A stretch of 64,000 nt of DNA, taken from positions 36,078 through 100,077 of IMG/VR virus record IMGVR_UViG_3300045988_062714; one strand, 5' to 3'. The number at the start of each line of letters is the position of its first letter. Position 1 is the stretch's first letter. Below, piece after piece: positions 5,641 to 64,000 of the stretch. The notes below the pieces were generated by a model. It ran no database searches. It worked only from the letters and a program-made list of their open reading frames with translations, and was not told the origin of the DNA. Source of the stretch: a virus. The position numbers were made by a program, and so were the translations under genes.

Positions 5641-6159
5641 TTACCAAGTATTGTAATCAGTTATGTTCTTACTCTCCTTACATACATTACATTTAACAGA
5701 TTTACCTATACCTATTCCACTATGTGTAAATGTTACTGAACATCCACACGCCTTTATTCCCTTATGTAGTTCATAATGTTGTTTTTGAAATTCGGCATAT
5801 GCATTTGCCTCCTTCTCATTCAAACTATAAGAGATAGCACTAGGTTTAAATATATTAGATATACAAGCAGTACCATCAGTACTAATAACAAATCCAGAGG
5901 AAGTTCCTTCTTCCTTTTTGTCCTCGTTAATCTGCCGAATCCTTTCTTTGCAAATATGGATAATCTTCTCGTAATCCATTATTCTAGCATCCTCTTTAGA
6001 CTTACCAGGTTCTTCCTTAGTTCTCAGTATCCTCTTTACAATATCCGCATCCCATGGATTCAAATTATATTCTCTCCAAATATCCCAAGGTTGTATTTTA
6101 TGCTTGCTGTAATTAGAATTTCCTACATTATAGCTTCTAATGTCTTCATTCGTCTCCAT
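5641..6159 (-). CDS. Hypothetical protein with a C-terminal Cys-rich (zinc-ribbon-like) tail.
   Basis: Intact ORF. ATG at 6159; the track M at 6162 is a TTG. C-terminal CGCS...CNVCK. Confidence 0.45.
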   Translation of the reverse strand: METNEDIRSYNVGNSNYSKHKIQPWDIWREYNLNPWDADIVKRILRTKEEPGKSKEDARIMDYEKIIHICKERIRQINEDKKEEGTSSGFVISTDGTACISNIFKPSAISYSLNEKEANAYAEFQKQHYELHKGIKACGCSVTFTHSGIGIGKSVKCNVCKESKNITDYNTW

Positions 6160-6347
6160 CAACTATTTCGATTTTATATTCAAGTTCCATAGAATCTCTT
6201 AAAGTGTCTAAATCATCTACGAACATAATTACGTCTCCAGAATCCACAAAGTCTCTTAAGACCTCTATAAAATCAAACTCATCGAGTTCGTCATCACATT
6301 CCTTAGCATAGGCTACTCCTGTTCTGCTCAATAATACTCTATACATA

Positions 6348-6608
6348 TTAATTACCGTTTATAATTGATATAATAGTGCCCAAAGAAACAGCACCTACTG
6401 TTCTCTTAACTTCTTCATCTTGCTCGTTATAATATATCAAAACTGGAACATTTCGTATACCTCTTGCATTCGCAAGTTCTTCCTCTTCGTCTACATCATG
6501 CTTGACAATTTCTATTCCAGTAAGCTGTTCTAACGTCCTGTCTAGTACTTTGCATGGTCCACACCATGATGCTCCAAACTTTTCAATTCTTGTAATCATT
6601 TTAATCAA
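6348..6608 (-). CDS. trx: Thioredoxin/glutaredoxin-like redoxin (NrdC/NrdH-type hydrogen donor for the RNR).
   Basis: FGASWCGPCK active-site motif (WCGPC), 86 aa. Confidence 0.75.
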   Translation of the reverse strand: MIKMITRIEKFGASWCGPCKVLDRTLEQLTGIEIVKHDVDEEEELANARGIRNVPVLIYYNEQDEEVKRTVGAVSLGTIISIINGN

Positions 6609-7492
6609 ATAGGCTTAGTTCTTGACTTATCTGTACTCTGTTATTTACGTACTTAATTGGTTCCGTTATTTCTCCAGAAATAAGTTCAGAGTTAGGATTT
6701 TCTGGTATTCTTTTAGCCAGATTATGATCTATAGTAGCATAACAATATTTACATCCCATCTTACAAGTATCGTATTCTCCTATTCCGTAGGTCTGAACGC
6801 TACAAGTACATCCACTAGTAATAGAAGCTTTAGTCGGCTTTATGTTAAGCCCAAATATCTTAGGACTCATACATCCTTCAACATATACCCCAGGATATTC
6901 CTTTCCTAATCTACATATCTGTAAATGTAGATTATTCTCGGATATAGCAATAACTCCCATTCTCATAGTAATCCAGTCCTTTTCCTCTTCAGTGAAAGGA
7001 ATTATTTCTGGCATATTAGCTAATGTGTGGGAATATGGAGTAATAAAACTAAATATACATCTACTTACATACTTGGACAATTCTTTAGCCATTTTCTTGA
7101 AAGAATCTACTAACCATTCGCAAGATATTTTGTTAGTCTTAAGTAAAGGGTCAAACCTCCACAAAACATTTTCTTTGCCTACTATCTTACTCAACTCTTT
7201 TAAAGTCTTTATACTTTCATCTACCGATGGAACATTTGGCTCTATGTCAGTTCCATATGGAGTAATAGTATATACACTTATACTTGGAATTGATTTCTTG
7301 AATATATGGTAATATTTTAGAATAGTCCTTAGAACAGAAGGCTATACAGTCTACATCCTTTAAGGAGTATGCTGTAGTAACCTTAGTTCTAGGATTCTGG
7401 GAATAAATAAAGTCCTTATGTAACAATTTATCTACCAGCCAATCAGTATAACAAGCTACTATGTCAGTTCTTAAGCTGATGTTTAGAATCAT
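6601..7492 (-). CDS. DUF1848-like radical-SAM-related protein with a C-terminal CxxxCxxC cluster. It is split over two frames, by a frameshift, an overlapping-gene arrangement or an authentic indel.
   Basis: Track ORF 7247-7492 has an ATG start. Track ORF 6601-7194 starts at TTG, and its frame stays open upstream to 7341, overlapping the first ORF in a +1 frame. The C terminus carries TCKMGCKYC. The combined length of about 295 aa fits a single protein. Confidence 0.4.
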
Positions 7493-7772
7493 TTATTTTT
7501 TCATTATCCTCGCTTAAAATAACTAATCTGTCTGCTAGTAAATTAGCTACCTGGTGGCGTACAGAGTCTGTAGTCCAATATCTCATTTGCGTTTCGATAT
7601 GTCTACGTACAAAAGTATCCATATCGAAGTCGTCAAAAGTTTTCTTTAACATAAGCTCAGCTTGAGACTGCACTGCCTCTTTAAGCCAAGCTCTTATATC
7701 ATCCTTGGTGATGCCCAATTCATTATGAATGTAATTCTTGAACATCATCCATTTATCATTCTTTTCTGACAT
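7464..7772 (-). CDS. Hypothetical protein.
   Basis: Intact 102-aa ORF with an ATG start, tightly packed with its neighbours. Confidence 0.4.
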   Translation of the reverse strand: MSEKNDKWMMFKNYIHNELGITKDDIRAWLKEAVQSQAELMLKKTFDDFDMDTFVRRHIETQMRYWTTDSVRHQVANLLADRLVILSEDNEKINDSKHQLKN

Positions 7773-8428
7773 TAGATATGAAAGTCTATTACTGAAATTT
7801 CAACATCATCTCCTACACTGTCTAGATACTCTTTAAACTCCTTGTTCCAAACATCTTCGTCTTTGTCATTTGTAGTCATAGCCCACCAACCCATACTAGC
7901 AGACTCATGCCAATCTCCGTCCTCTGTTACAAAACAGAATGGAATTCTATCTTTTTCCAACATAGCATCCCAGTCTACTTCTTCTTTGGTAGCAAAGATG
8001 GCATTGAGGGGTTCTCCGTCTTCTCCTTTTTCCTTAAGAAGTAACCATGCTCCCCATCTACCTCCTTCACAATACCAATCCCACTTAGAGTCAGGATTAT
8101 ATGTAGACATCAAGTTCTCTTCGTCATCAATTTCATATCCCCAGTTCTTAGCTTCTTCCCAGGCATCTTCATATGAGATAAACAACCCTTTCTCTATGAT
8201 TTTATTAGCTCTTTCAAGCTGTTCCTTTTCCCATTCGGTGGTAGGATTCTTATACTTATCTGCTAGCTTAATGGCATACTCATAGTTATCAGCGTGTCTG
8301 GTTTTAACCTCATCAATGGCTTCATCCTTTGTATATCTAACATATTGTTCTACCTCCATGTTTTCATCATAGGGTTCTAACAATGTTTCAACATTACTTC
8401 CGAATACTAGTCCTACAAAATGGCTCAT
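7772..8428 (-). CDS. Hypothetical acidic protein.
   Basis: 218-aa ORF. Its start overlaps the neighbour stop (ATGA). Confidence 0.45.
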   Translation of the reverse strand: MSHFVGLVFGSNVETLLEPYDENMEVEQYVRYTKDEAIDEVKTRHADNYEYAIKLADKYKNPTTEWEKEQLERANKIIEKGLFISYEDAWEEAKNWGYEIDDEENLMSTYNPDSKWDWYCEGGRWGAWLLLKEKGEDGEPLNAIFATKEEVDWDAMLEKDRIPFCFVTEDGDWHESASMGWWAMTTNDKDEDVWNKEFKEYLDSVGDDVEISVIDFHI

Positions 8429-8910
8429 ACTATATATTTTTTAACAATTTCTGAAATCATCTTACCGTCTGCTTGAGGAAATTCTGATTTCAAATATTTA
8501 ATCGCATTTCCCATTTCTTTCTTTGGAATTTGGAAACTAACCATATCTATTGAATTTTCTTCATTATAGAAATCTTCAATAAAGCCTTTTCCCTCACACC
8601 ATATTTGTAATGCAGAATGTATGTCTGGCTCATTTACAGGCTCAGGAAGCAACTTTTTTAGTACTTCCAATTCATCCCTATATTCAGTTGCCAAGTCCTC
8701 TCTACCAGCCTCTATAAAGCTAGAAATACTGTCCTCTAATTTCTTACACATTTTAGAAATAAGCTGTATCTCAGCTGCTTCATCATAAGGTTTAGCATTT
8801 TTAGCAGTTTGTAGAATCTGAATTTCTGCCTTCAGATTCTTATATGCACGAAGTTCTACTTGATTTTTAGACTTCATTGCTTTAGCTATACATTCGTTTA
8901 TATTTATCAT
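8425..8910 (-). CDS. Hypothetical protein.
   Basis: 161-aa ORF with a 4-nt start/stop overlap. Confidence 0.45.
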   Translation of the reverse strand: MININECIAKAMKSKNQVELRAYKNLKAEIQILQTAKNAKPYDEAAEIQLISKMCKKLEDSISSFIEAGREDLATEYRDELEVLKKLLPEPVNEPDIHSALQIWCEGKGFIEDFYNEENSIDMVSFQIPKKEMGNAIKYLKSEFPQADGKMISEIVKKYIV

Positions 8911-9245: not shown

Positions 9246-9320
9246 ATTTCTAGAGTATAATTAGAAATCCAATCTCCACAACATTCACAATGTCCTAAGT
9301 CTTTATATTCTCCTAGATGC

Positions 9321-9476: not shown

Positions 9477-9486
9477 AATTAATTTA

Positions 9487-9690: not shown

Positions 9691-9691
9691 A

Positions 9692-9814: not shown

Positions 9815-9824
9815 CCCTTGAACA

Positions 9825-12779: not shown

Positions 12780-13759
12780 TCACACCATCCCTTTTTTCTA
12801 AATTCTGCATGTAGAGGTTCTGCCAATTCTCTAGCCTGTGGATGTGCACTTTCTGCATCACGCAATTTAAAGAATCCGTCCCACTGTGTAAGAGTACCAG
12901 TCATAATTAATTCAGTCTTAAGACTATTAGGTAGTACAGCTCTTGCTTGCTGAGGTTTCCAACCCTGATTTAGTAATTCCAAATATAATTGTTCGGATAT
13001 TTGTAAATTAGCTATAAAATTCCTTTCTGGAGTAATCTCCCAAGGTTTAAACCAGGGGTTCCCTTTTCCAGTTAAATGATAGTAGTATTCTCCAATTAAA
13101 TTTCCATACTCATCATGATTAATGATAGTTCCTTTAACTTCTTGGAGAGCTAGGCTGTCTGCCCAACATGGAATAATAAAGGTAAGCTCATTACCAAATT
13201 TGTCCTTGGAATAATTGCAATAACGGGTACTCTCCTGAGCAAAACTAAACACTCTATGCCTTACAAATTCGTGGCTTACTCCTCTATCACATACAAATCG
13301 AACCGTAATTCTTTTCTCATGTTCCTTACCAGGATTACAGATATATTCCAAATCCTCAAGCCAACCATTTTCTACTAATACTCTATAATTAGTAGTAACA
13401 AATCCGTTCCAAGTTCCCTTTTCGGCTTCTCCAGTACTATTAGCTACAGAATAAGGATTGCTGCAATACTTAAAATACTGTTGTCTAGAAGACATCGTTA
13501 GAAATAGATATACGGTACCATGCTCTAACATAGCTCCATGTCCAGACTTTACCATTCTCTCAACAAATTTTGCAGCAGAATCTAGAGTAATCTTGTCCTC
13601 TGATTTGTAACAGGTTCTTCCAGCTATTTCAATCTGTCTATATACAGTGTCAATAAGCTCTTGCCTAGCCATTTTAGGTCCTATTTCCATATCAGATGGA
13701 ATGATTATGTTTCTAGGTTTCTGTTCTAAGATTTCAAAATATGGTTTAATTAGCTTCAT
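12776..13759 (-). CDS. thyX: Flavin-dependent thymidylate synthase ThyX.
   Basis: ThyX signature RHRVFSFAQESTRY (RHRxxSxxQxSxRY). Confidence 0.75.
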   Translation of the reverse strand: MKLIKPYFEILEQKPRNIIIPSDMEIGPKMARQELIDTVYRQIEIAGRTCYKSEDKITLDSAAKFVERMVKSGHGAMLEHGTVYLFLTMSSRQQYFKYCSNPYSVANSTGEAEKGTWNGFVTTNYRVLVENGWLEDLEYICNPGKEHEKRITVRFVCDRGVSHEFVRHRVFSFAQESTRYCNYSKDKFGNELTFIIPCWADSLALQEVKGTIINHDEYGNLIGEYYYHLTGKGNPWFKPWEITPERNFIANLQISEQLYLELLNQGWKPQQARAVLPNSLKTELIMTGTLTQWDGFFKLRDAESAHPQARELAEPLHAEFRKKGWCE

Positions 13760-13918
13760 TGTAATCCTTTGTTAGTTCATCATTAGTGTATTCATCTGCT
13801 TCATAGTCACTCATTGCCTGGTCATACCATGTCCAATTATCAACACCTGCCATTTCTAGACAACGCAACTTCCATCTATCCCTTAATAACTCTGCTAACT
13901 CGTCTTTTCTAATTAACT

Positions 13919-14296
13919 TCATTTCCATAGTCCCAGTTCTATACCTAATGCTTTATCCATGAAGCAATACGTTGTTCCGTCCTTTAATGTCCTGGTATTC
14001 GGCTTTATGTGTAATGCTAAAGGACAATCTTTATTAATTCCTGTAATATCTCCAGTTCTCCAAGGTTCTTTCTCAGATTTTTCTGCGTCGATGCCTATTA
14101 TGAATAAGGCTTCATCCTTATACTTTGCACATTCCTTGCAAGCATGATCAGAATAACCTACAGTTTTTCCATGTAGACTCTTTACCTCTTTTGCAGCTTC
14201 TTCAGAAAGAAGGGAATTCATTATGATTCCCTCCTCTGCTATATTCCCACAAACTGGGCATATATATTTAACTATAGAAGCTTTGAACTTATCCAT
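13919..14296 (-). CDS. Zinc-ribbon protein.
   Basis: CPVCG...CKEC pairs. Confidence 0.4.
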   Translation of the reverse strand: MDKFKASIVKYICPVCGNIAEEGIIMNSLLSEEAAKEVKSLHGKTVGYSDHACKECAKYKDEALFIIGIDAEKSEKEPWRTGDITGINKDCPLALHIKPNTRTLKDGTTYCFMDKALGIELGLWK

Positions 14297-15487: not shown

Positions 15488-15954
15488 TAAAACATTCCTC
15501 CAAATATTCCGTTAAACAATCTATCATTAAAATACTCTGGTACACATTTAGTTATAATAAGTTGTCTAAATGCATCTCCATGTTTTCTTCTTAAATAATC
15601 CTCAAGAGAACATTTTGCCATCAATTCATTATCTTTGTTCTTAACCTTTATTTCTTTATCGTAAAGGATTTCGTTAAATAAAACTACATTGTAGTTAATC
15701 CTATAATTCATTTCTAAGCTCTTCTCTTATTTGTTTTTTGATAAGCTGTCTAGCTTTTCTCTTATTTACACAATCTATCATGATTTCCCCAAATCTTTTG
15801 AAGTATATTTCTCCTCCCCATCCTTTCCATCCTTGAGAGCCATAAGCACGTCTTTTTCTTCGTCTCTCTTTTTTACCTTCATTGTCTAAGTATGGGGAAG
15901 GAAACCTATTTTTTGGGTTATGTGCTACTGGATGATGCTCATCAAATGTTCTGC

Positions 15955-16740
15955 TCATATAAGCTTCTCTATATAGTCTCTCCCTTCTCCAGTAAAGATT
16001 GGAATCTCATCGTCAATATACCAATAACCTCTGAGAGTTTGGTTCATAGTCTGATGATACTTCTTGATACAACAGCTTCCTCTTCTAAACTTAGTAGGAT
16101 AATCATTCCAATTAATTCCCTTCTCTTGGAAAAGTAGTTCTTGAATCTGATTAGTATTTAATCCTTCTAACTGCTTATGAGAAAAGTAAGCTTGCCCAAC
16201 AGATTGAATACTATTTCGTGTAGCGTCTTGCTGTCTCCATAATATACAATTAGTTACCTCTTCCTTGGGGATATTAAAGCATCTTGCATCAAATACCGCA
16301 CCTGATTTAATAGCACGTATGTAGGATTTAGCCAGATTTTCGTCTCCTAATTCACCTTTCCAAGAAAGTTCGTTAACTTGCACTTGGAATTGTCTATTAA
16401 AGATAAAGGTGGCCATAGATGCAGCTACACTACAGATTTTTTGTACTTCGTAATCAAACCAAGCATCTGTAGTAAGTTTTTGGTAGTCTATCAGAACTAG
16501 CGTAATTTCATCAGATTGTGTATATCCCAAGACACATCCCTGAATGTTTTCACACAGATATTTCATAGTTTCCTGCATGGCTTTGGACATACACTCATCA
16601 AAGGGCTTAACAAAACCCTTTGTGAATGTGTGAAATGCTTTTCCATCTAATCGGATGATTACAGGAGTTCTTCTCATAAGTGATGTCTTAGAACGCGCTT
16701 CATAATAAAGCTTCATTCTATCTCCAAATTCGTCTTTCAT
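15955..16740 (-). CDS. Thg1-like protein (tRNA-His guanylyltransferase family 3'-5' nucleotidyltransferase), a likely tRNA 5'-end repair enzyme.
   Basis: RLDGKAFHTF...KPFDE...LGYTQSDEITLVL matches the Thg1/TLP catalytic motifs (RxDGRxFHxF, FExPxD, YxQSDE). Confidence 0.6.
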   Translation of the reverse strand: MKDEFGDRMKLYYEARSKTSLMRRTPVIIRLDGKAFHTFTKGFVKPFDECMSKAMQETMKYLCENIQGCVLGYTQSDEITLVLIDYQKLTTDAWFDYEVQKICSVAASMATFIFNRQFQVQVNELSWKGELGDENLAKSYIRAIKSGAVFDARCFNIPKEEVTNCILWRQQDATRNSIQSVGQAYFSHKQLEGLNTNQIQELLFQEKGINWNDYPTKFRRGSCCIKKYHQTMNQTLRGYWYIDDEIPIFTGEGRDYIEKLI

Positions 16741-17794: not shown

Positions 17795-18730
17795 TTAAAA
17801 CTTTCCGTCATTAGGTTGTAAACAAGTAATGCCTAAGTCTCTCCACATTCTTACACATTTTGTACTATCTTCGAGTACGATAGGGACATAATACTTGTCC
17901 TTTACATATTGCTCGTATAACTTTTTCTTACAGTCTGGTCCTGCTGAATAATCTCCTTTAGGTCGCATAAGAACCATGTCTGGACATAGTAGGTGCGCAT
18001 CAAGCCATTTCTCAGTAGCTACGCGAGATTCCGGAGTATCTTCTCTACCAGTAAGAATGATTAACTCTGCATTGTGGAAATTACAATAAGCTCTTACTAA
18101 GCCAACTATTTCATTAATTGGTTCATCTTTTTCCATACCCTCGGCAGCACCTTCTCCATAGAAGGGACGACCACTAGTATTTAAGCACAACGTAGCATCC
18201 ATATCACATATAATAGCTACTGGCAAATCGGGATTCTGTTGACTTGCCTTAGCCTTCATTGCCATAATATCCTCGTGAATGATAAAGTTTCTATAGCGTC
18301 TCCATGTGTCTTTAATAACCTTTGCTCCTATAGGATTTAGTCGAGATGCGTCTCGACGAATACATTCTTCAACAGGAGTCCAGAAATCTTTAAACTCTAC
18401 TTCATACTTCCATCCATACTCACCTCGTACTCCTCTATTAAATAGATCAACCTCAGATTCTATTTCGGCAACAGTCTTGGGATTTAGGTTCATATTGTCT
18501 ATTACAATATCATACTTACGGGCCATAGAATCAAGCAAGAATCTATCATAAAGACATTTAACTAATTTCTCTCTGCTAGGAATCCAATAATCTCCTAGCA
18601 TATTACGAATATCGTCATTATTAAATCTCACTCTATGTTCTGGGTCTTCGTGACACCATTGTTTAGCCCATGTACTCTTTCCAGAGCCTTGTATTCCTCT
18701 ACATATAATTATTTTTCTTGTTTCCATCAA
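17795..18730 (-). CDS. pnk: Polynucleotide 5'-kinase/3'-phosphatase (T4 Pnk-like).
   Basis: N-terminal P-loop CRGIQGSGKSTWAK. C-terminal HAD motif IICDMDATL (DxDxT). Confidence 0.65.
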   Translation of the reverse strand: MMETRKIIICRGIQGSGKSTWAKQWCHEDPEHRVRFNNDDIRNMLGDYWIPSREKLVKCLYDRFLLDSMARKYDIVIDNMNLNPKTVAEIESEVDLFNRGVRGEYGWKYEVEFKDFWTPVEECIRRDASRLNPIGAKVIKDTWRRYRNFIIHEDIMAMKAKASQQNPDLPVAIICDMDATLCLNTSGRPFYGEGAAEGMEKDEPINEIVGLVRAYCNFHNAELIILTGREDTPESRVATEKWLDAHLLCPDMVLMRPKGDYSAGPDCKKKLYEQYVKDKYYVPIVLEDSTKCVRMWRDLGITCLQPNDGKF

Positions 18731-19477: not shown

Positions 19478-20284
19478 TTATTTTTCACTAGTTGGCTTAA
19501 GCCATAAATTAGTGTTCTTAAAAATGTAATCTCTTAAATCAGTGAGTTCAGATAACCACCCTAGAGTTAAAGATGAGTTACACTTAAAGCACTTTGTCAG
19601 TTCTTCCCTTATTCTCTCCTCAGATACTACTGGCATTTTGTCTAAATAGTCATAAGCCTTCATAGCCTGCCACATATCTTCAGATACCCGTAGTCTCTTG
19701 GTAATAGAGAATCTTATGCCTCTGAGAATCCTTAAAGGGTCATCATCAAAGGTTATAATAGGAGGTAATGGAGTCCTAAGAAGTTTCTCCTTAATATCTT
19801 TAAGACCTCCAAAATAATCAATGATTTCTCCAGTATCAGGGTCTTTAGCTAAAGCATTAACAGTAAAATCCCTACGTAATAAATCATCATAGAGATTTCC
19901 TGGCTCAACTATTGGAGTTCTAGTACCTGGAATGTACCCTACCTCCTTACGAGCCATTACAAAATCAGCCACTCCTTGATACTTATAGCCCTCCGGAAAC
20001 CTAGCTCGAATTGTATAGCAGTCTGGAGTTACTAAGAAGATTTCAAACTTTTCTGCTATTAAATGTTCCCATAATAACTGAAACATATCACAGGTAGTCA
20101 AGTTTTCCTTTAAAGCTTCCTCGCATGGAACTGCTACATAATCAATATCCTTATTAGTAAGGCCGAGAAGTTCATCCCGTACCTTACCTCCTACTTCGTA
20201 AAACTTAAACATCTCCATTTTCAAATAATTCTCTAATATCATAGCAGTCAATATAGGGAGTTCCACTTGCAGTTTCTTTTTCAC
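19478..20284 (-). CDS. cca: tRNA nucleotidyltransferase (CCA-adding enzyme) or poly(A) polymerase head-domain protein.
   Basis: GGKVRDELLG followed by a DIDYV (DxD) motif. Confidence 0.6.
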   Translation of the reverse strand: MKKKLQVELPILTAMILENYLKMEMFKFYEVGGKVRDELLGLTNKDIDYVAVPCEEALKENLTTCDMFQLLWEHLIAEKFEIFLVTPDCYTIRARFPEGYKYQGVADFVMARKEVGYIPGTRTPIVEPGNLYDDLLRRDFTVNALAKDPDTGEIIDYFGGLKDIKEKLLRTPLPPIITFDDDPLRILRGIRFSITKRLRVSEDMWQAMKAYDYLDKMPVVSEERIREELTKCFKCNSSLTLGWLSELTDLRDYIFKNTNLWLKPTSEK

Positions 20285-20708
20285 TTGTGAAGAAGTCTAC
20301 AAAGTCCTCCCATGCTCCATCATCCTTTAGAATAAAATCAGCAAGAGGGTATATTGCCATCTCTTCTAACTGCCAGGAGAGATGATACTCTTCAGCAGGA
20401 ACCCATTGGGTAAGATACTCCCCACAGTGGTCAACTACATACTGAATACAATGGTCTAGCCAGTCATTGCCTGCAACCTTACAATGATAATCGTAAAGTA
20501 TTGGATACTTCTCTGCTAAGAATAGTAAGAAGTTTTTATCGGCTTCTCGCGAGAAGTTACAATAGTCAGTAAAAGACTCTCCAGCTTCTCCTTCCCATAT
20601 GCTAATAAGACGTGCTACATCTTTAGCCTTCAAATCCTCTCTATTGTAAAACCTTGTCTTCTCCATAGATTTCTCCGCTATATTCATTCCATTCTTCGTC
20701 ATCTTCAC
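20205..20708 (-). CDS. Hypothetical protein.
   Basis: 167-aa ORF. Confidence 0.35.
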   Translation of the reverse strand: MKMTKNGMNIAEKSMEKTRFYNREDLKAKDVARLISIWEGEAGESFTDYCNFSREADKNFLLFLAEKYPILYDYHCKVAGNDWLDHCIQYVVDHCGEYLTQWVPAEEYHLSWQLEEMAIYPLADFILKDDGAWEDFVDFFTSEKETASGTPYIDCYDIRELFENGDV

Positions 20709-21156
20709 ATTCTTCTATGGAAAAACTATAGTAGGTACTCTCGTCTACTCTACTCCATAATTCATCCCAGTCACTTTCTTCCATTTCATCTGGGTCATAG
20801 CCTTCTTCCTCAGCTATATCGTTCTCACAGCTGTAGCTTTGAAAGTTATCATAAGCTAGTTGTTCGGCTAAATCCCATAACTCCATCTCTGATTCAGCGA
20901 CTGCTCTAAATGTATCATCCATTCCACACCAATATGTAGAAACATGAATTAAAAACCTTTTCATAATTTCTTAACAGTTATTTGGTCGTAAGTTATACCT
21001 TCTATAACTCCATCTAGATAATTATATACCACGTCCATCAGAGTATCTTCTGGTACATCTTCTAAACTAGTATATTCTTCAGATCTACCATCGTTAGCGT
21101 CTATCAATAACGAGCTATCGGAGATATCAAATGTAAATTCTAATTTAAATTTCATG

Positions 21157-44737: not shown

Positions 44738-44941
44738 TCCGTTTATTCTATTTATTTTTTCATTAACTTTACATCTCTAGGGTTTCTCTAGTCAATAACG
44801 AGTTGCTCATTTATAAAGTCCAATAAGTCTTGTGTATTTACACACGCTCCGGCTGGAAGCTCACACCTATATACTGTCTGTCTAGGAAATTTGGATATTA
44901 GTGCTTCTTCGTCTCCAGAAATAAAGTTTTCTCCAGTATCA

Positions 44942-49917: not shown

Positions 49918-51195
49918 TTAAAAACGATAGGTAAAATTCTGCAATTTTTTCTTGTAAGGTTCCCAAGGCTCTCCATTAAGTAACTTTCGTAAGTTATCTA
50001 CATCAATAGTAACATACTCGCTCTTTTGATGAGACTTCTTAAACCATTCTTGTTCAACGGTATCTTCTAGCACTAATGTGAATATTTCAGAGTATTTAGA
50101 ACCTTCTTTTCTAATGACCCTACCAGCGGCTTGAGTGCTTTTTGTGCTACTAGAGTCAACTCCAAGCATTATCCCGACCGATAGACCGGGACAATCAAAA
50201 CCTTCAATAGCCAATTTACAGCTATTAATTACGCCCTTGTCTAGTAGGGCGAACTCCTCAAGTGTAATTCTGTTTTGTTTTTTACTTTCTTTGCCAGTGT
50301 AAACATATCCTACTCCTATCTTCTCTGCCATTGCAGTGTTGGCAGAGAATGTAATAATTTTCTTGTCTGCTCTGTGAGCAATAATCTCCCTAGCCACTTC
50401 TAATTTAGCCGGATGATTATGGATAAACTTTTTTCTAGCTTGTAAAGCTCTCATAAAAGCCGTAGAATGAAAGGTAATCTGCTTCAAAGCATTAGACAGC
50501 TCAGCTTTATCCGAACTACTACAAATCTGATTTCTGTAATTAAGCCTATTTCTGAGGCCGTCTTTACCAACCATACTCATTGCGAGTCCAAAATCAAAGT
50601 TAAAGAATTCAAAATGTCTTATAAATTCCCTATTTTGCTCTCGATAGCTTTCGATGTCTTCTGCTGTGATAATTACTTGATATTCAGTAAAATCAGATAC
50701 CCAACCATTGGCTTTGGCTACTTCAATAGTTACACTATCAACTACAGGGCAATATTTCTCGACTATAGTATGTCTACCGTCAAGTCTTTCCAGAGTAGCA
50801 GTTAGTCCAAGAATTAACTTGTATTTAACCTTACTAAATACAAATTGTAAAGTCTCAGCAGCAGTTCTATGGATTTCATCAATGATTAAAAAGTCACATT
50901 CGTATCCATTCTTTGCTGTAGTATTTACAACTTGCACCTCTGTATTTAACCCTAGACCTTCCTTATCTAATATATCTATCCACTGATTCTTTAAAAGTTC
51001 CGTGGGGACTACTACCAATGCTCTAATAGTAGGATATTTAGATAGAACAGCCTTTAAACAATTAATAGCACATCGTGTTTTACCAAAGCCTGTACAGGCT
51101 TCTATGGTGCCTCTTCCTTTATGTAATAACCAGGCTCTCTTACATTGCTCCTGTCGCTCATCACGAGTAACAGGAGTAAAGAGGTCTTTCATCAA
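49918..51195 (-). CDS. Superfamily II DEAD/DEAH-box helicase.
   Basis: Walker A TGFGKT, DEIH box and a helicase C-terminal region. Confidence 0.6.
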   Translation of the reverse strand: MMKDLFTPVTRDERQEQCKRAWLLHKGRGTIEACTGFGKTRCAINCLKAVLSKYPTIRALVVVPTELLKNQWIDILDKEGLGLNTEVQVVNTTAKNGYECDFLIIDEIHRTAAETLQFVFSKVKYKLILGLTATLERLDGRHTIVEKYCPVVDSVTIEVAKANGWVSDFTEYQVIITAEDIESYREQNREFIRHFEFFNFDFGLAMSMVGKDGLRNRLNYRNQICSSSDKAELSNALKQITFHSTAFMRALQARKKFIHNHPAKLEVAREIIAHRADKKIITFSANTAMAEKIGVGYVYTGKESKKQNRITLEEFALLDKGVINSCKLAIEGFDCPGLSVGIMLGVDSSSTKSTQAAGRVIRKEGSKYSEIFTLVLEDTVEQEWFKKSHQKSEYVTIDVDNLRKLLNGEPWEPYKKKLQNFTYRF

Positions 51196-54656: not shown

Positions 54657-55466
54657 TTATTTACAAACGTCTATTACAGTTAAGTTCTCGTTGCTGGGAC
54701 GATAATTAATATCCCTATGAGAATTAGATACAATAACCTGGTCAAAATTATTACACATATTAACCAGGCCTTTATCATTAACTGCATGACATACGATTAT
54801 GATAAACTTGCTATTTGGATATCTCTCTTTGAGAACCTTAAGCTCTCCTAGGAAAGTTCCTCCAGCATCACACAAGTCATCAATGAACACAAATGTAGAA
54901 TAGTAGCAATTCTTAGACTCCTCTATTTCAAAGGACTCAATTCTTCCAGTCTCTAGATTTCTTTCCTTTTTGAAGACTAAATAACCATAGTGAGAATAGT
55001 TACTTCCATATCTGTCCTTCGCCCCATGGTCTGGGAACACGATATTACTTTGGGCTGGAATCCAAGAGTGGTGTCCAAATTCCCAAGGTAAACATCTGTC
55101 ACCAAGAAGATGAAAAGTTCTACTAGAATGTGCCTCAAGAACATATATGTTTCTATAGCCTAAGCTATTTAACATATTACATACTACTTTCAAGGAGAAT
55201 GGACGATTAAAACTCATTACTCTATCCATACGCATAGACATTAAATAAGTAATGTGTAAATCCCATTCTACTTCTTGTCTATCTAAAATATCTCCTACTT
55301 GCATTAAGAGGAATAAATCCTCAGTATTAGATATTCTACAAATGACATCAATAGATTCCTTTCTGTTTAATTCCTCAGTAAGGAAAAACTGAGGCTCTCC
55401 ATCAGGAAATCTAGTAACATCGTACTTAATTTCACTGATTTCCTTGTTGATTAAGTTTAATTTCAT
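54657..55466 (-). CDS. Ribose-phosphate pyrophosphokinase-like enzyme (Prs-like; candidate ADPR-pyrophosphate synthetase Adps).
   Basis: PRPP-binding loop VFIDDLCDAGGTF and a Prs-like VFPDHGAKDRY segment. Confidence 0.55.
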   Translation of the reverse strand: MKLNLINKEISEIKYDVTRFPDGEPQFFLTEELNRKESIDVICRISNTEDLFLLMQVGDILDRQEVEWDLHITYLMSMRMDRVMSFNRPFSLKVVCNMLNSLGYRNIYVLEAHSSRTFHLLGDRCLPWEFGHHSWIPAQSNIVFPDHGAKDRYGSNYSHYGYLVFKKERNLETGRIESFEIEESKNCYYSTFVFIDDLCDAGGTFLGELKVLKERYPNSKFIIIVCHAVNDKGLVNMCNNFDQVIVSNSHRDINYRPSNENLTVIDVCK

Positions 55467-55887
55467 CTACTACATATTTTAAGATTTCATAACTTTCTTC
55501 TAGACCTGCCCTATCATCTAGGAGGATATTATAATAGGGTTTCTCAGAATTAGGAAATACAGGACTTTCATTTGTATATAGCTCAAAGTCTTCATCCAGA
55601 CCTAATAATTTAGCAGTTTTCATCTGTTTAATACATAGCTCTTGAAGATTTGTTTCACAGGTAAACAATATCAAATGAAATCCCAATTTATAACACTTAT
55701 TAAGTAAATTTATGACTTCACTATAATCTCCTCCATTATTATGGTAATCGAAAATAGTATTATCAAAATCGAAAGCGACTATTAGCTTTCCGTATTTATG
55801 ATACTCTTCTAATAGTCGTTTCTTGCAAGCTTCTTTCCCAAAAGGATGATTAAAGTCCATGGTCAATTCTTTGTCTGATTTCTTCAA
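55432..55887 (-). CDS. HAD-superfamily phosphatase.
   Basis: IVAFDFDNTIFDY (DxDxT). Confidence 0.5.
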   Translation of the reverse strand: MKKSDKELTMDFNHPFGKEACKKRLLEEYHKYGKLIVAFDFDNTIFDYHNNGGDYSEVINLLNKCYKLGFHLILFTCETNLQELCIKQMKTAKLLGLDEDFELYTNESPVFPNSEKPYYNILLDDRAGLEESYEILKYVVDEIKLNQQGNQ

Positions 55888-57400
55888 GAGAATATTCTTT
55901 CTTCAAGATACCATCTTCAAAGACAGTCTCTAAGCATCCCTCTTTTTCCTCCTCGATTGAGACCTGGTCGGTAGCAGTATACTTCCCATCCAGACCTTTA
56001 TAGACAGCAATCAAACCTTTCAAAGAGTTCTTAGTACCATCATCAGTTTTAGGATGTTTGAAGATTTCTTTCAATTCGCCATTTACTACGCAAGCAGTAG
56101 CCTTAATAGCAAACCCAAGACTATCTCTACTTGCATACTGATAGGAATATGAACCTACTCCCAGAACGAGATTACAAGCCGCCATATGAGCGTTTTCTAA
56201 TCTCAAGTAGATTTGCTTTTGACGTTCTAGAGTAATAGAATCTCCATAAAGCAGACCAACCTTAGTGCTAGGATAACGGTAATCCTTTGAAGTAGTATTC
56301 CATCCGAAGATTTTACCAAGCATATAATATGCCCCATAATATTGACCTTCGGACACTTCAACATACTCTGCATCGTCGTTAAACGGAGCATAGCAGCAAT
56401 AATACTTACCTTCTTTCATTCTGGTATTGAAGTGAGGATTAGTTCTCAACCCGCAGATTATATCTACTGGGTCTCCACTATCAGGACGGATTACTACTCT
56501 ACCATCACGAGCCATAATGTCTTTCTTCAGCTTGGGCAAGAAATTTTCAATTACATTCCAGAAATCCCAAGTATCAGATACAATAGAAACAAACCCAGAA
56601 GGATACAAATCATTAATTAGACGTTTGAAAGTGCCCAGCTCATCTTCCTCCCCTCCAGCACACATTACAGAGTGTTCTGTTGCTGGAACTGTAGCAGCAA
56701 TCAATTCCTCGTCTGAATTAGCTCCATAATATTCTTCCAAAGCAGCAATAGCTGGAATAGTCTCACTTCCCACAAAAGAAGTCATATGCGCCATACCAGA
56801 TATAATTGCGGCTTCCATTCCCGCCATACCTCGCATTGAGAAATCATGACAACAAAAACCAAGATTTACATCTGTTGGAAAACCAGTCTTGCAAGCATGA
56901 CGATGTAGCTCTTTCTTATAAAGCCTAGCTCTAGTAGCAGATGTGCATGGCATCCACAAGGTACAGCTGATAATAGTCTCTAAGTAGTTAGTTAACCAAA
57001 AGAACTCGGGTAGGGTATTTGTAATGGTCATCATGGGAACCCGAATAGGGCACACAGAACCTTCAGGAAGAGCCTTTATGCGAATTGGTAGATACCCAAG
57101 GTCATATAAAGCTTCAATATGTCTGTACCCAACGGATTCAATACCAACAAAGTTGTTTACTCTACGATAGAACATCTCTACAGCTTCCTTCTTTGGTAGA
57201 TTAAAGAAGTTTTTCTCAAACTGTTTAATGAGATATTCTTTGATTAGGTATTGAATACCAAATACTACTGAACCTTCGGTTGCTTCTGGGAAGTATTTAT
57301 TACTTCTAGGAGTCCAGTTACTATAAACTTGTTCAGTACCTTCGGGGTACATTCTGTGATGGCCCAATTTGTAACCATCTGTAGCATTAATTATTTCCAT
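55850..57400 (-). CDS. nadV: Nicotinamide phosphoribosyltransferase-like enzyme (NadV/NAMPT or Namat).
   Basis: N-terminal INATDGYKLGHHRMYP...QVYS matches the NAMPT TDSYKxxH...YP...VYSY pattern. 516 aa. Confidence 0.7.
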   Translation of the reverse strand: MEIINATDGYKLGHHRMYPEGTEQVYSNWTPRSNKYFPEATEGSVVFGIQYLIKEYLIKQFEKNFFNLPKKEAVEMFYRRVNNFVGIESVGYRHIEALYDLGYLPIRIKALPEGSVCPIRVPMMTITNTLPEFFWLTNYLETIISCTLWMPCTSATRARLYKKELHRHACKTGFPTDVNLGFCCHDFSMRGMAGMEAAIISGMAHMTSFVGSETIPAIAALEEYYGANSDEELIAATVPATEHSVMCAGGEEDELGTFKRLINDLYPSGFVSIVSDTWDFWNVIENFLPKLKKDIMARDGRVVIRPDSGDPVDIICGLRTNPHFNTRMKEGKYYCCYAPFNDDAEYVEVSEGQYYGAYYMLGKIFGWNTTSKDYRYPSTKVGLLYGDSITLERQKQIYLRLENAHMAACNLVLGVGSYSYQYASRDSLGFAIKATACVVNGELKEIFKHPKTDDGTKNSLKGLIAVYKGLDGKYTATDQVSIEEEKEGCLETVFEDGILKKEYSLEEIRQRIDHGL

Positions 57401-57413
57401 TCTAAAAATTATT

Positions 57414-58254: not shown

Positions 58255-59082
58255 TCATTTGTTATTAGCTACATCTTTAAATAAGGTGGGAACCTGACCA
58301 TAAGTAGGAAGTTTTCCATCCCACTTCTTAATCATATCCTGCTGAACTATGAGAACTGACAAAGATGCTGAAATCTTTCTATTATATTCAGCTTCTGCAT
58401 CACCCTTAATCTTAAGAGCTTCTGCCTCTCCTTGTGCAGCTGCTACTTTCTTTTTAGCTTCTGCCTCAATAGTCTTAACTTCATTCTCTGCCTTCAAAGC
58501 CTGTTGAATTGCAGCATTCTTAGCATCAATAGAATTGACTAGCGTCTGTGGATATTGAAGACCAGAAGTCATTTGTTCAAGCTGAAAATTCTCAGCCAAG
58601 AGTTCCTTTGACAGTCTATCTTCTATAGACTTCTCAAACTCCTCACGTTTACTTACTAGTTCATCAGTAGTATAGTTATTCAGCTGAATGCGAAAAGCAT
58701 TCTTTACGTAATTATACAAAGTAGTGTTAATTACCTCTACAATATCTTCCTTTCTATACTTCTTAAATACTTCTGGTGATTTCCCGTCAACAATCTTCAA
58801 AGAAATTGTAGGGTCTACAGTAAATGATGATCCATCTTTAGCATTAATACTGAAAGGAGGATAGTCCACAGTCTGTACGAATGTAGGATATTCATATACA
58901 GCCGTAGTAACAGGATTGTACCATACCGCACCAGTAACAAGAGACACATCGTCTACTCCTTTACCATCTCCGTATAGATTTACCTTGATGCCTTCATAAC
59001 CAGCATCAATTCTCTCATAGCCACAACTAGATAAGCCAAACACTAAAGTTAATACGCACAAAATCTTAATAATTGTCTTCAT
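58255..59082 (-). CDS. SPFH/band-7 (stomatin/HflK-like) lipoprotein.
   Basis: Lipobox LVFGLSSCGY. C-terminal Ala/Glu-rich coiled coil typical of SPFH proteins. Confidence 0.5.
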   Translation of the reverse strand: MKTIIKILCVLTLVFGLSSCGYERIDAGYEGIKVNLYGDGKGVDDVSLVTGAVWYNPVTTAVYEYPTFVQTVDYPPFSINAKDGSSFTVDPTISLKIVDGKSPEVFKKYRKEDIVEVINTTLYNYVKNAFRIQLNNYTTDELVSKREEFEKSIEDRLSKELLAENFQLEQMTSGLQYPQTLVNSIDAKNAAIQQALKAENEVKTIEAEAKKKVAAAQGEAEALKIKGDAEAEYNRKISASLSVLIVQQDMIKKWDGKLPTYGQVPTLFKDVANNK

Positions 59083-59409: not shown

Positions 59410-59523
59410 TTATCGAGTTTTAACAGACCCAGGTCTGGTAGTTGCAGCCTGAAAATCTTTTCCTTGTTTATCCCACCATGCTTGCTTTGCTTTTAACCAA
59501 GCTACTTTTTTCTTATACTTCAT
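59410..59523 (-). CDS. Small, very basic ORF of 37 aa (MKYKKKVAWLKAKQAWWDKQGKDF...).
   Basis: ATGA start/stop overlap with the OmpA-like gene. Confidence 0.3.
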   Translation of the reverse strand: MKYKKKVAWLKAKQAWWDKQGKDFQAATTRPGSVKTR

Positions 59524-60536
59524 TGTTCGGAAATTATTACGATACGATTAAATTCATTATCTCCAAATTCAGTAGTAATTCCGCATCCCTTAACAACCAA
59601 TTTATCCTCTGGAGCACCATAGCTAATCAGAGCCTTCTTCATAGATTCTGCCCTAGCTACAGCAAGGTTATTATTAAACTCTTCTGGACCTTCTTCCGAA
59701 GCATATCCCTCAATCACATAAGTTTTTCCACTATTAGAAATATAGGAAGCTAGTTCTGAGACAGCCACATTGGAAGTTTTAGAAATCTCTGAAGAATTTT
59801 GAAGGAATTGAATTTTTGGAGTCAAAAGCTCTACTTTAGTAATTTCGATTGTGTCCGTCTTAACAATTTCTATTGGTTTACGAGCCATAAGTTCCTCATT
59901 CTTGGCTCTCAACTCATTAATAGAAGCGTTTAGGCTTTCAACCTCGGCATCACTATACAACTTCATAATTGGAAAGTCCCCTTTGCTAGACTTAAAGCGA
60001 TAGGTAGCACCAATATAGACGTTAAACTCATGATTCAGAGGAGAAGTCTTGGGAAGTAACATATACTCAGGAGTAACATTTAATGCCCATCTATTAGAGA
60101 TATTAAAGTTACATCTAACGGCTCCACGGGCGGATACATTATTATAGACATCTCCATAAGTATGATACCAACCAGCACCAACGATTAGTATAGGCTCAAA
60201 CAGACGCCTATCTCCGTTATATCCACATATCAGGTTAGTAAGATTGGTAGTAACGTTAGCTGTCAAATTATGTGAATCAAAGAATGTTTTATTTCCTTGG
60301 TTCATTCCAGCCATCATGTCTAACTCCAAGCCAAAGATAGGAGTAACCTCCTTACCAATAGCAATGTTTACTAGTACATCATTTGGTTCTGCCCAACTTC
60401 TATGGTTATCCCAAATAGTAGTTCCAACATTACCAGAAATATACCAGTTATCCTTCATACTTCCAGTCTCAACAACTTGTGCGCTAGCAAATGCACACAT
60501 CAAACACAAACAAATAATACTAAAAATTCTCTTCAT
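59520..60536 (-). CDS. Outer-membrane protein with a C-terminal OmpA-like peptidoglycan-binding domain.
   Basis: Signal peptide MKRIFSIICLCLMCAFASAQ. C-terminal EGYASEEGPEEFNNNLAVARAESM (OmpA_C pattern). Confidence 0.55.
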   Translation of the reverse strand: MKRIFSIICLCLMCAFASAQVVETGSMKDNWYISGNVGTTIWDNHRSWAEPNDVLVNIAIGKEVTPIFGLELDMMAGMNQGNKTFFDSHNLTANVTTNLTNLICGYNGDRRLFEPILIVGAGWYHTYGDVYNNVSARGAVRCNFNISNRWALNVTPEYMLLPKTSPLNHEFNVYIGATYRFKSSKGDFPIMKLYSDAEVESLNASINELRAKNEELMARKPIEIVKTDTIEITKVELLTPKIQFLQNSSEISKTSNVAVSELASYISNSGKTYVIEGYASEEGPEEFNNNLAVARAESMKKALISYGAPEDKLVVKGCGITTEFGDNEFNRIVIISEQ

Positions 60537-61393: not shown

Positions 61394-62440
61394 TCTGAGT
61401 ATTAGTCCTGAGATTAGTTCCTAGTAGTATTGCTATCTTTAGCAGGTCGTCTTGGTTATCACAAAATATATTATCTAAAATATAGTTTGCGTAATCACTT
61501 ATTCTAACTCTCTTTCCTACAGCTCCATACTTCCCATTAAGCCACTTAATTTGTGGAATAAAGTCTTCCAAATTATCTCCAAGATGCCTCAAGGCTTTTC
61601 TAATAGAGACTGGAAACCACATTTTTTCTTTTATCCAATCTAAGTGACAATAACCAAACGCAAATGCTCTACTTAAATCCTTCTGAATAAACTCGTCTAA
61701 CTCGAAATTTCTCTCATGCCTACCAGCTTCCTCGAAATCATCTTTCAAATCCTCACAAAAAATCTGATTAAATTCAATCATAACTCCAAGTTTCTAGGCA
61801 AGCTATAAGTTCCAGCATCCCATATCTGCAATAACCTTGAATGGTCCAGTAGCTATAGAAAGATAAGGACTTTTGTTGTCATTGTACAGCTTCATTACTT
61901 CTCTTAGTAGTATACTAGCATTTCTGGATAGTTCGTAAAGAGTGGGAACTCTGTGTTCGTTCGGACCTACATACATTTTCCATGTACTTTTGCCTATACA
62001 GCGACCCTCGTCATCATATTCTCTATGACTCTTGTTCCACTGCATATACTCCAGAACCTTATCAAAATCAAAGTTCTCCATAATGCTTTTGTATTGTTCC
62101 TCCAATGGGGGACAATCATCCCTTGTCAGGACTGTTCTCTTTGTTTTGCTCATTTTTGTAACAATTAACAAGATTCTGTAAGTTGGACAACTTATCAGTT
62201 CTTACACTGACCAGTAGCCCACCCTTACGTAAGTTGTAACTAAGTTTAATTCCGCAATGATTTAGAATTTCGATAAACTCTCTCAATGCGCTTCCCTTTA
62301 ACACATTTCTGTAGACTAGTTTCTGACCATCTTGATATCCTGCTCGATAATATTCATTCGCAACATCAGAAATAAGCCATCGCTTAATAGGAGATACCCT
62401 ACTTAAGAGTTCATTGACTCTGGTTGCGATAAAATCCATA

Positions 62441-62614
62441 TTACTGAATACTATCAATTACAAGACTATCCACACCTAGAGTGTCTACACTCATTGTGTC
62501 AGCAACTTCTTTAACGATTGCGATAGAATCGTTTTCTGGAGCCTGAGTCTTTGTATTACCTGCACAAGCAGACATCAGTGCAACCATTCCGAAAAGCAAT
62601 AGTACTTTCTTCAT
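62441..62614 (-). CDS. Small lipoprotein of 57 aa.
   Basis: ATG at 62614. Sequence MKKVLLLFGMVALMSAC (signal peptide plus lipobox). Absent from the track because it is shorter than 60 aa. Confidence 0.35.
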   Translation of the reverse strand: MKKVLLLFGMVALMSACAGNTKTQAPENDSIAIVKEVADTMSVDTLGVDSLVIDSIQ

Positions 62615-62655
62615 TTTTCTTAATTTAAATTAGTTAATAATCATTTTATCTATCA

Positions 62656-62707
62656 AAAAAAAGAGTGGTTCCAGTATCTGTGCTTCACCAGATACTTTCC
62701 CCACTCC
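62656..62707 (-). terminator. Rho-independent terminator on the - strand.
   Basis: Bipartite stem GAGTGG..CCAGTATCTG/CAGATACT..CCACTC followed on the - strand by U8. Confidence 0.5.
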
Positions 62708-63088
62708 TATCACTCCGAAGAGCTTGTACCATTATTAGGTTGGTCAACCTCCCTCTTCATCTTGTTGAGAATTTGGGATAATAGTCACCAAGTTTAAAGA
62801 TTACTTGTAACTGAAGCAAAAGGCTAGAATCCCGAAGGGATTCCGTAACTCCTTCAACACGTGGTTGACGAGCTATGTAGGAAGCTAACGCGCAGGCAAA
62901 GATGAAGCCGTAGTCAAAGACCTAGCTACACTAACAAAGACTAAGACAAAGACTCTCAATTAGAGAGTAGGTTGTAAATTTTTGTGTAGCCAGCGAATAA
63001 AGATTAAATCCATGCGGATTTAAGAATATACTGTTCATAATTATTCCTGTTAAGTATGTTATGTTAGCTTCCTACGGAAGTCCTCTAA
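62708..63088 (-). ncRNA. Candidate structured non-coding RNA or unusually long structured 3' UTR.
   Basis: About 380 nt with no ORF. GC is well above the genome background. Contains multiple perfect hairpins (GAATCCC/GGGATTC, AAATCC/GGATTT, CCTCTAA/TTAGAGG) and ends at a terminator. Confidence 0.3.
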
Positions 63089-64000
63089 TTACTTAGAGGA
63101 AGAGTCGCCTTGTCTCCTAATCTCTTCGAAAATATCTAAAAGATTCTTAGGCAAAGCGATTTTTAGTTTGGAAATACGTTCCATTTCAGAAGTTTTCCAA
63201 CTATTGAAACAACTTCTCAACTCTCCTAATTCGGAGGTATATTTGTCGTATTTTGCTTTAAATTCAGCCATTTTCTCACGATACTCTTGTTCTTGAGTGT
63301 TAGAAAGTTTATTAACCTCCTCCTTAAGCTCAGCTTTAAGAGCATTTAACTCCTTCTCGTAAGAACGATAGGTGTCTTGAAGAGACATGAACATATTGTC
63401 CACTTTTTCTACTTCGATGGTAGGGTCTTGGTAGTAGAGAATTAAATCTCTTCCAGAGCCTTCCTTATAGATAGGACAATTCTCAGCTGCATGAACTTCT
63501 TTTCGTGCTTTACTAAAGGCTCCTTTTGGATGAATATACTTTCCATAGGTAGAAGCAAACGCCTCTAATCTTAGGAATTTATTTCTCTTGTTAATATCCC
63601 ACGACTTTATGATAGTCTCTTCAGTCGGAGAAGGTAGAGCTTCTGGATACTTAGGCTGCTCTGGCAGTCCTATTCCCTGACTTTCTGCCCAATCATCAAG
63701 CATAGTAGCAGATACTTTGCCAATCATTCCTTCTTTCTCTTTAATAGCTTCTCGTACCCAAGCACAAAAACTATTCATGGCAGCGACCTTTTCCAAATCA
63801 TCTTTTATAAAGTCAAGGGACTTTTGTCCTACTGTCATTAACTGCTTTTCTCCTCCACCGATAGAGGCTACAGATACTTGAAAGAATTTCACATTATTCA
63901 AGCGTTCCTGTGCTGCTTGAATCATTTCTTGTGCGATGTTCGCATAGAAGTTTGCTGACGTAGAAGTCAACCCTTCATTTCCAAAAAATACACTGTTCAT
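63089..64000 (-). CDS. Hypothetical coiled-coil protein, possibly truncated by the window edge.
   Basis: ORF runs to the last base of the window. Confidence 0.4.
   Translation of the reverse strand: MNSVFFGNEGLTSTSANFYANIAQEMIQAAQERLNNVKFFQVSVASIGGGEKQLMTVGQKSLDFIKDDLEKVAAMNSFCAWVREAIKEKEGMIGKVSATMLDDWAESQGIGLPEQPKYPEALPSPTEETIIKSWDINKRNKFLRLEAFASTYGKYIHPKGAFSKARKEVHAAENCPIYKEGSGRDLILYYQDPTIEVEKVDNMFMSLQDTYRSYEKELNALKAELKEEVNKLSNTQEQEYREKMAEFKAKYDKYTSELGELRSCFNSWKTSEMERISKLKIALPKNLLDIFEEIRRQGDSSSK

Follow-up and report, generated by a model that had tools for sequence, protein, structure and literature searches.

Layout of the window

The stretch of DNA described here, which spans positions 36,078 to 100,077 of the IMG/VR virus record IMGVR_UViG_3300045988_062714, is 64,000 nucleotides long and is referred to below as the window. 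It contains the border between two gene blocks that treat the codon TAG differently: the end of a late module on the + strand, in which TAG interrupts every long reading frame under the standard code, and an extended run of replication genes on the - strand. The GC content is 35% and the GC skew changes sign near 5.6 kb. The features on which the argument rests are listed below, together with the number of in-frame TAG codons where these occur.

1-887, + strand: 3' part of a late-module open reading frame (ORF) in frame 3, which runs off the window start; 7 in-frame TAG; ends at TGA 885-887
880-5589, + strand: giant late-module ORF of about 1570 amino acids in frame 1; 45 in-frame TAG; ends at TAA 5587-5589
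5596-5633, not assigned to a strand: terminator-like hairpin of 16 bp followed by a T-run, between the convergent late (+) and replication (-) blocks
5641-64000, - strand: replication, nucleotide-metabolism and auxiliary block of 114 ORFs, with Pfam assignments
44192-44737, - strand: Hjc/RusA-like gene of the Holliday-junction-resolvase type, 181 amino acids; in-frame TAG at codon 4 (44726-44728)

The hairpin and its T-run are placed exactly where the recoded and the standard-code blocks meet, and one such element was found against 0.2 expected in shuffled sequences. The - strand block is classed as a replication module from its predicted gene content, and as early or middle by analogy with the crAss-like phages that have been studied (PMC10136315).

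Under the standard code the + strand from 1 to 5589 gives short ORFs only. Frame 1 is nevertheless devoid of TAA and TGA from position 868 to the TAA at 5587, a run of 1573 codons, whereas the other two + strand frames hold 72-99 TAA and 33-70 TGA. A PD-(D/E)XK exonuclease-like segment lies inside the 880-5589 ORF, and a PHROG search with the 1-887 ORF returned no match. Full-length orthologues of the 880-5589 ORF are present in 37 IMG/VR contigs, and many have no interruption when read in the standard code; in recoded relatives the late-ORF orthologues are likewise restored when TAG is taken as sense, and TAA is never found in frame. The + strand of this region is thus readable only with TAG as a sense codon. 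This is genetic code 15 restricted to the late module: ORFs that are broken in code 11 become whole with TAG as sense, and TAA and TGA still serve as stops.

TAG on the two strands

The 114 - strand ORFs, counted at a threshold of at least 40 amino acids under the standard code, tile 5641-64000 and contain no in-frame TAG. They end at TAA in 71 cases, at TGA in 38 and at TAG in five (4.4%). Their glutamine codons are CAA (298) and CAG (231), so that TAG accounts for 0/529 of the glutamine-type codons, a figure to be set against 52/84 (62%) in the two late ORFs. Base composition does not exclude TAG from this strand, where out-of-frame copies are plentiful (1164 occurrences).

The original prediction, made from the sequence alone, held that more than 100 - strand genes were intact under the standard code and free of TAG, that the stops inspected were TAA or TGA and never TAG, and that TAG was essentially kept out of early and middle genes and enriched in late ones. 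As a statement about sense codons this is borne out by the counts given above. The statement about stops is nearly right but not strictly so, as five ORFs terminate at TAG and the codon is therefore not excluded as a terminator; the tiling by intact genes has a single breach, the resolvase-type gene with TAG at its fourth codon. The five TAG terminators, all on the - strand, are as follows.

15701-15703, - strand: end of ORF 15701-15958; next in-frame stop 2 codons on; TAG in 2/2 relatives
20641-20643, - strand: end of ORF 20641-20964; next in-frame stop 6 codons on; TAG in 12/12 relatives
21551-21553, - strand: end of ORF 21551-21946; TAG in 10 relatives, CAG in 4
44788-44790, - strand: end of a small ORF, 44788-44982, downstream of the primase gene; next stop 12 codons on
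61803-61805, - strand: end of ORF 61803-62171; created by a deletion of one nucleotide; reading the TAG joins the next ORF in frame

In the four relatives with CAG (glutamine) at 21551-21553 the ORF extends for nine codons to a TAA, so the TAG found there is homologous to a glutamine codon near the C-terminus. Public gene calls in relatives read through the TAG at 44788-44790 and add 12 codons. The deletion behind the TAG at 61803-61805 is common only to L037, a contig 100% identical to the window, and the other relatives terminate at this locus with a TGA that overlaps the next ATG. The next TAA or TGA after the TAG terminator lies 2-12 codons away in four cases, against about 12 expected, a difference from which no conclusion is drawn; a wider comparison of tandem stops is confounded by spurious wrong-strand ORFs in the comparators.

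Just beyond the window, where L037 continues the same genome (its positions 1-7393 correspond to 64001-71393 in window numbering), three of 15 further ORFs on the same strand end at TAG. When the same tiling is applied to standard-code genomes, the crAss-like genome cr106_1 has 17/106 TAG terminators (16%; Fisher p = 0.006 against 5/114) and the relative MT835470 has 9/118 (7.6%; p = 0.41). The scarcity of TAG terminators is accordingly real but ordinary for the group, and low TAG-terminator use in relatives of recoded phages has been published (10.1101/2021.08.26.457843).

TAG as a glutamine codon

The identity of the amino acid was approached through orthologues of the giant late ORF. Comparison with an orthologue of 94% identity (L138) reveals 15 codons that differ in TAG status, and these are TAG/CAG in 13 cases, TAG/CAA in one and TAG/TCG in one. 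Among 22 non-redundant standard-code orthologues at 25-37% identity, which contain no TAG, glutamine is the commonest residue in the 45 columns that correspond to TAG, where it reaches 16.8% against a background of 3.0% (5.6-fold). The neighbouring E and K residues at TAG columns also match those at CAA and CAG columns. These alignments indicate that TAG encodes glutamine in the late ORFs. Proteomics has recovered peptides with glutamine at TAG from crAss-like phages (Peters et al. 2022, PMC9523058), and one phage of that peptide set belongs to the Zeta group according to PMC10136315.

Suppressor tRNAs in related contigs

Searches for tRNA and other Rfam families found none in the window. In related contigs, the DNA upstream of the - strand block forms a region of about 27 kb in which about 30 tRNA genes and a transfer-messenger RNA (tmRNA) gene are scattered among small ORFs. 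At the far end of this array, about 26 kb past the right end of the window, stands a suppressor-like tRNA of 71 nucleotides with a canonical 7-nucleotide anticodon loop. Of the 16 contigs with that family, 11 have UUA as its anticodon and five have CUA, and four further contigs carry a related CUA version. Another 2.4-3.3 kb on, at about 29 kb from the end of the window, the opposite (late) strand encodes a second tRNA, whose anticodon is CUA. Representative copies are these.

L174 1214-1284, - strand; L092 330-400, + strand; 9 other contigs: array-head suppressor-like tRNA with a UUA anticodon
L174 4471-4543, + strand; L189 4630-4702, + strand; 6 other loci: late-strand tRNA(CUA), divergent from the early-strand suppressor

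Every related locus that extends as far as the late-strand tRNA(CUA) contains it (8/8). Its sequence matches the phage's own tRNA-Gln(UUG) at 77% identity, and the D-arms of the two are the same; the UUA tRNA at the array head is 62% identical to this glutamine-type suppressor. Three contigs (058602, 070909 and 074321) carry both tRNAs together with a late gene that matches the window's at 99.8% identity or more and has the same in-frame TAGs. The two full-length copies have 45 of these and differ from the window's gene by 5-9 nucleotides in 4719; the truncated copy of 074321 has 40. From these near-identical late genes we infer that the genome sampled by the window encodes both suppressor tRNAs, some 26-30 kb past its right end. 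The original prediction named two possible routes to late-gene translation, a phage suppressor tRNA or release-factor manipulation; the first gains support from contigs closely related to the window, the window itself being without a tRNA.

The first genes after the late-strand tRNA(CUA), which encode a PD-(D/E)XK nuclease and small proteins, are TAG-free, and TAG-rich ORFs come only after them (for example, one with 15 TAG in 404 codons). No release factor (RF-1/PCRF), glutaminyl-tRNA synthetase (GlnRS) or code-switch protein was found among the 114 - strand ORFs or among the 10 ORFs adjoining the late-strand suppressor, nor was any other aminoacyl-tRNA synthetase found among the former.

Several other features of the region accompany these tRNAs. 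TAA is the main terminator and never occurs in frame, despite the UUA (ochre-type) allele of the array-head tRNA. At L174 1311-1517 (-), immediately 5' of the early-strand UUA tRNA, there is a RAGATH-14 RNA (RF03145) whose score of 156.6 bits exceeds the gathering score. The phage tmRNA within the array is found at L046 8422-8976 (+), and also in L076 and L077, with an Rfam score of 73.4 bits; ARAGORN detects it only in some relatives. A tRNA-like gene with an anticodon loop of 14-15 nucleotides follows a tRNA-Gly pair (L047 5037-5119; L067 8454-8535), and its assignment by ARAGORN varies among relatives between Tyr(ata), Ser(act) and Leu(aag). This gene was entertained as a suppressor and rejected: some relatives have CUA within its loop but others CAA, the closest relative lacks the gene, and no need for it remained once the canonical CUA tRNAs had been found.

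A resolvase-type gene with TAG at codon 4

The - strand gene at 44192-44737 opens with ATG AAA AAG TAG, and reading it in code 15 fills positions 44477-44737 of a gap left by the standard tiling at 44477-44787. Public gene calls in ten related contigs annotate its homologue as a single gene of 181 amino acids. The product matches phrog_244, "RusA-like Holliday junction resolvase", over residues 67-180 (E = 4e-10); matches to the NCBIfam Hjc model (E = 6e-4, 19.6 bits against a cut-off of 70) and to Hjc chains in the PDB (E = 0.3) are weak, and the N-terminus is weakly NUMOD-like. In the alignment with 1hh1 the segments YE-L, ID-IV and IQAK of the query pair with VE-R, PD-II and IEMK of Hjc. 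Three residues of the nuclease motif, E, D and K, are retained, whereas Q stands in place of the second E (E...D...QxK against the catalytic E...D...ExK of Hjc). The motif glutamate is residue 81, seven residues upstream of the sole standard start codon after the TAG, a TTG at residue 88, and a standard-code product would for this reason lose part of the putative active site.

The TAG at codon 4 is kept in 10/10 contigs reached via the neighbouring gene and in 46/46 IMG/VR contigs retrieved with a pattern that left this codon free. Such invariance in 56 contigs argues for selection and against drift. Among about 19,000 - strand codons there is no other convincing sense TAG. On these comparisons 44192-44737 is identified as one gene, predicted to be read through its TAG, and as the sole - strand gene that needs TAG as sense. 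In one relative (L191) a gene of the HNH/NUMOD4 homing-endonuclease type is inserted near the resolvase-type gene.

Two reading conventions as the probable account, and the alternatives

It is highly probable that two reading conventions coexist in this genome, with TAG reassigned to glutamine in the late block and decoded by a suppressor tRNA of the phage. The replication block on the - strand would be written for the standard code of the host, with no sense TAG save in one gated gene, and the late or structural block on the + strand would use TAG as a glutamine codon, decoded by the late-strand tRNA that appears to derive from tRNA-Gln and bears a CUA anticodon. This tRNA is probably charged by the host GlnRS. 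Before it accumulates, ribosomes would halt at the many TAGs and no late proteins would be made, as envisaged in the temporal code-switch model of Borges et al. (bioRxiv 10.1101/2021.08.26.457843), from which the timing of the switch is here carried over by analogy. Once it has accumulated, the late ORFs would be translated in full, and the - strand ORFs that end at TAG would merely gain 2-12 residues. The same device would gate the resolvase-like nuclease within the replication block, an activity expected to be needed late or to be harmful early.

Several observations weigh against this picture. The window encodes neither a tRNA nor a release factor or aminoacyl-tRNA synthetase, and the suppressor is attributed to this exact genome by way of near-identical contigs in a group whose genomes are mosaic, with early regions common to contigs whose late modules differ. 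The early-strand suppressor-like tRNA and the array of about 30 tRNAs point in the same direction as the replication genes, so suppression may set in before the time expected of a strict late switch. The - strand does contain TAG terminators (8/129 in this genome, including the ORFs beyond the window). Finally, strand alone does not define the recoded set, as the first genes past the late-strand tRNA(CUA) are free of TAG.

A different route to the same late ORFs would be manipulated termination: the phage might inactivate or out-compete release factor 1 (RF1) of the host, or exploit a host suppressor, and near-cognate host tRNAs would then read UAG. The absence of a tRNA from the window fits this proposal, as do surveys in which suppressor tRNAs were found in only about 40% of TAG-recoded phages and agreement within the Zeta group was imperfect (10.1101/2021.08.26.457843; PMC7886860; PMC10136315); a UUA-anticodon tRNA would also be easier to tolerate if UAG alone had lost its release factor. 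Against it stand the glutamine-type CUA tRNA at all eight loci that reach its position, the lack of an RF-1/PCRF domain protein in the window or adjoining the tRNAs, and the 45 TAGs of a single ORF, which demand very efficient decoding. On balance this explanation is improbable.

Less probable still, and very unlikely in our judgement, is a genome without temporal logic, written in code 15 throughout, whose replication block owes its lack of TAG to chance, to composition or to recent acquisition from a standard-code relative. The mosaic structure of the genomes lends it something, and, to judge by MT835470 and cr106_1, sparing use of TAG terminators is common in the group. Chance, however, does not account for 0/529 against 52/84 glutamine-type codons, and composition is no bar to TAG on a strand with 1164 out-of-frame occurrences; the pattern is moreover common to many related contigs and agrees with the rule published for the group, and the one in-frame TAG, invariant in 56 contigs, speaks for selection and not for drift. 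The notion that the + strand from 1 to 5589 is non-coding, a decayed, pseudogenised or misassembled stretch whose TAGs are true stops, has the short standard-code ORFs in its favour but virtually no credibility, given 1573 codons without TAA or TGA in DNA of 34% GC, a run beyond chance when the other frames are full of both, the full-length orthologues in 37 contigs, a good number of which stay open in the standard code, and the synonymous-like exchange of TAG and CAG.

Within the two-convention reading, a more specific proposal is tentative and, on present evidence, rather doubtful: that an amber codon serves as a timer for a single gene, the codon-4 TAG delaying the resolvase, and that the UUA allele implies discrimination between UAG and UAA at termination. 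A UUA suppressor allele in genomes that use TAA as their main terminator would imply some means of telling UAG from UAA. Such discrimination might arise if RF1 function were lost with UAA still covered by RF2, or through modification of U34, and would correspond to the release-factor part of the original prediction.

Other genes of the replication block

The - strand block has the following further assignments in Pfam.

22601-24790, - strand: family A DNA polymerase (PolA)
25323-26168, - strand: sigma-70 family factor with regions 2, 3 and 4 (PF04542, PF04539, PF04545)
31979-33178, - strand: ATP-dependent DNA ligase
37456-39627, - strand: NrdD; the activase NrdG is also encoded
44942-45961, - strand: Toprim primase
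47964-49058, - strand: DnaB-like helicase
49918-51195, - strand: SNF2/ResIII helicase
within 5641-64000, - strand: Thy1, UDG, dUTPase and RNase H

The sigma-70 factor is a candidate regulator of the transcription programme. A set of genes predicted to service tRNAs is embedded in the same block.

8425-8910, - strand: YqeY-like protein of the GatB/YqeY family (PF09424, E = 1e-18)
15955-16740, - strand: Thg1-like tRNA 5'-nucleotidyltransferase (PF04446, E = 3.5e-30)
17795-18730, - strand: polynucleotide kinase-phosphatase of the RNA/tRNA repair type (PNKP; PF25109, E = 6e-26, and AAA_33)
19478-20284, - strand: protein with the head domain of CCA-adding enzymes and poly(A) polymerases (PF01743, E = 2e-18)
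28333-29700, - strand: RNA-ligase-like protein, a weak match (PF09414, E = 4e-4, below the curated cut-off)

A tie between the YqeY-like protein and recoding was considered but is not supported, as a homologue is present in MT835470, a standard-code relative that has no tRNAs.

Candidate anti-defence genes occur on the - strand at 13746-13928, 25000-25323, 34830-35384, 54657-55466 and 55850-57400. Their products comprise a T7 gp5.9-like RecBCD inhibitor, a protein with a Tad2-like domain and an NAD-salvage set made up of NAMPT, an NMNAT-like protein of the cytidylyltransferase fold and a PRTase. An OmpA-family protein with an outer-membrane beta-barrel domain (59520-60536) and an SPFH/Band-7 protein (58255-59082), both on the - strand in the replication-side block, are unusual cargo and point to a Gram-negative (Bacteroidota) host. 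In an interval of 470 nucleotides at 62615-63088 neither code gives a convincing ORF, nor is a gene called there in any relative, and this part of the - strand block may have a regulatory or promoter role; an ORF that opens there in code 15 (62757-63038) has no gene call in any related contig and was treated as non-coding.

Identity of the phage

PolA is closest to homologues in Crassvirales (IAS virus at 52%, cr111_1 and Bacteroides crAss phages; 44-52% identity), and a crAss001_48-related domain is found among the window proteins. In a megablast search the window matched only unannotated "Bacteriophage sp." fragments from human faeces (MT83xxxx records), and it is 100% identical over 13 kb to an ENA contig of 171,360 bp. 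The source contig is filed in ENA under ERZ28660292 (WENC17-2 scaffold_20), where the window spans 31046-95045 and the two suppressor genes would be expected at about 121-125 kb. A 35-mer from the polymerase gene retrieves 27 IMG/VR contigs of up to 192 kb, except for one of 270 kb, and the related contigs measure 183-192 kb. These matches assign the window to a human-gut crAss-like phage. It is probably a member of the Zeta group, to judge from the 171-192-kb related contigs, compared with 145-192 kb for that group, the human-gut source, the many tRNAs and the late-restricted recoding of TAG; the TerL, MCP and portal genes lie beyond the window. The phage is very abundant in the gut, with one of its proteins indexed in about 10,000 blocks of an assembly collection.

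Comparison with known systems

Recoding of TAG to glutamine restricted to late genes is not new to this phage group: Yutin et al. 2021 (PMC7886860) described late-gene-restricted recoding in Zeta and other crAss-like groups. The window agrees with the published accounts of Zeta-group recoding (PMC7886860; 10.1101/2021.08.26.457843; PMC9523058) in its standard-code replication genes and in late ORFs broken only by TAG, in the reading of TAG as glutamine, in the crAss-like, human-gut setting, and in the dozens of tRNAs and the tRNA(CUA) of near-identical genomes. Nothing essential differs. The amber-gated resolvase, the divergent pair of suppressors and the UUA allele of the array-head tRNA are details not found in those papers.

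The window thus offers a clean and well-resolved example of a two-code phage genome, with the border at the terminator-like hairpin between the convergent blocks (5596-5633). To annotate 1-5589 and the gene at 44192-44737, gene callers must be set to code 15. The gated resolvase, the divergent suppressor tRNAs and the UUA allele could guide work on the timing and mechanism of the code switch; this residual value lies within the window for the resolvase and outside it for both tRNA features.

The amber suppressors of the supE type in Escherichia coli are tRNA-Gln species with a CUA anticodon that insert glutamine at UAG. The late-strand tRNA resembles them in joining a tRNA-Gln body to CUA, and its U1-A72 acceptor end is that of the phage tRNA-Gln(UUG). 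It differs in being encoded by a phage and in the efficiency of UAG decoding that ORFs with 45 TAGs demand of it.

The gated resolvase recalls the TGA-recoded Agate phages, in which an intron homing endonuclease lies in an early gene (10.1101/2021.08.26.457843). The two cases share a nuclease with a recoded stop among standard-code early genes, the nuclease presumably being made only after the code switch. The gene in the window is distinct in being free-standing and Hjc/RusA-like, with a single TAG at codon 4 that is invariant in 56 contigs.

The UUA allele has a counterpart in an alpha-group crAss-like genome, for which Yutin et al. 2021 (PMC7886860) reported the 'pre-emergence' of a TTA suppressor from TTG(Gln). 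Both cases concern a UUA-anticodon tRNA in a crAss-like genome without reassignment of TAA. In contrast to the alpha-group tRNA, the UUA tRNA of the present group is not a recent derivative of tRNA-Gln, as reflected in its 62% identity to the glutamine-type suppressor; it alternates with a CUA allele at its locus, and it does so alongside a separate tRNA-Gln(CUA) in genomes that are recoded at TAG.

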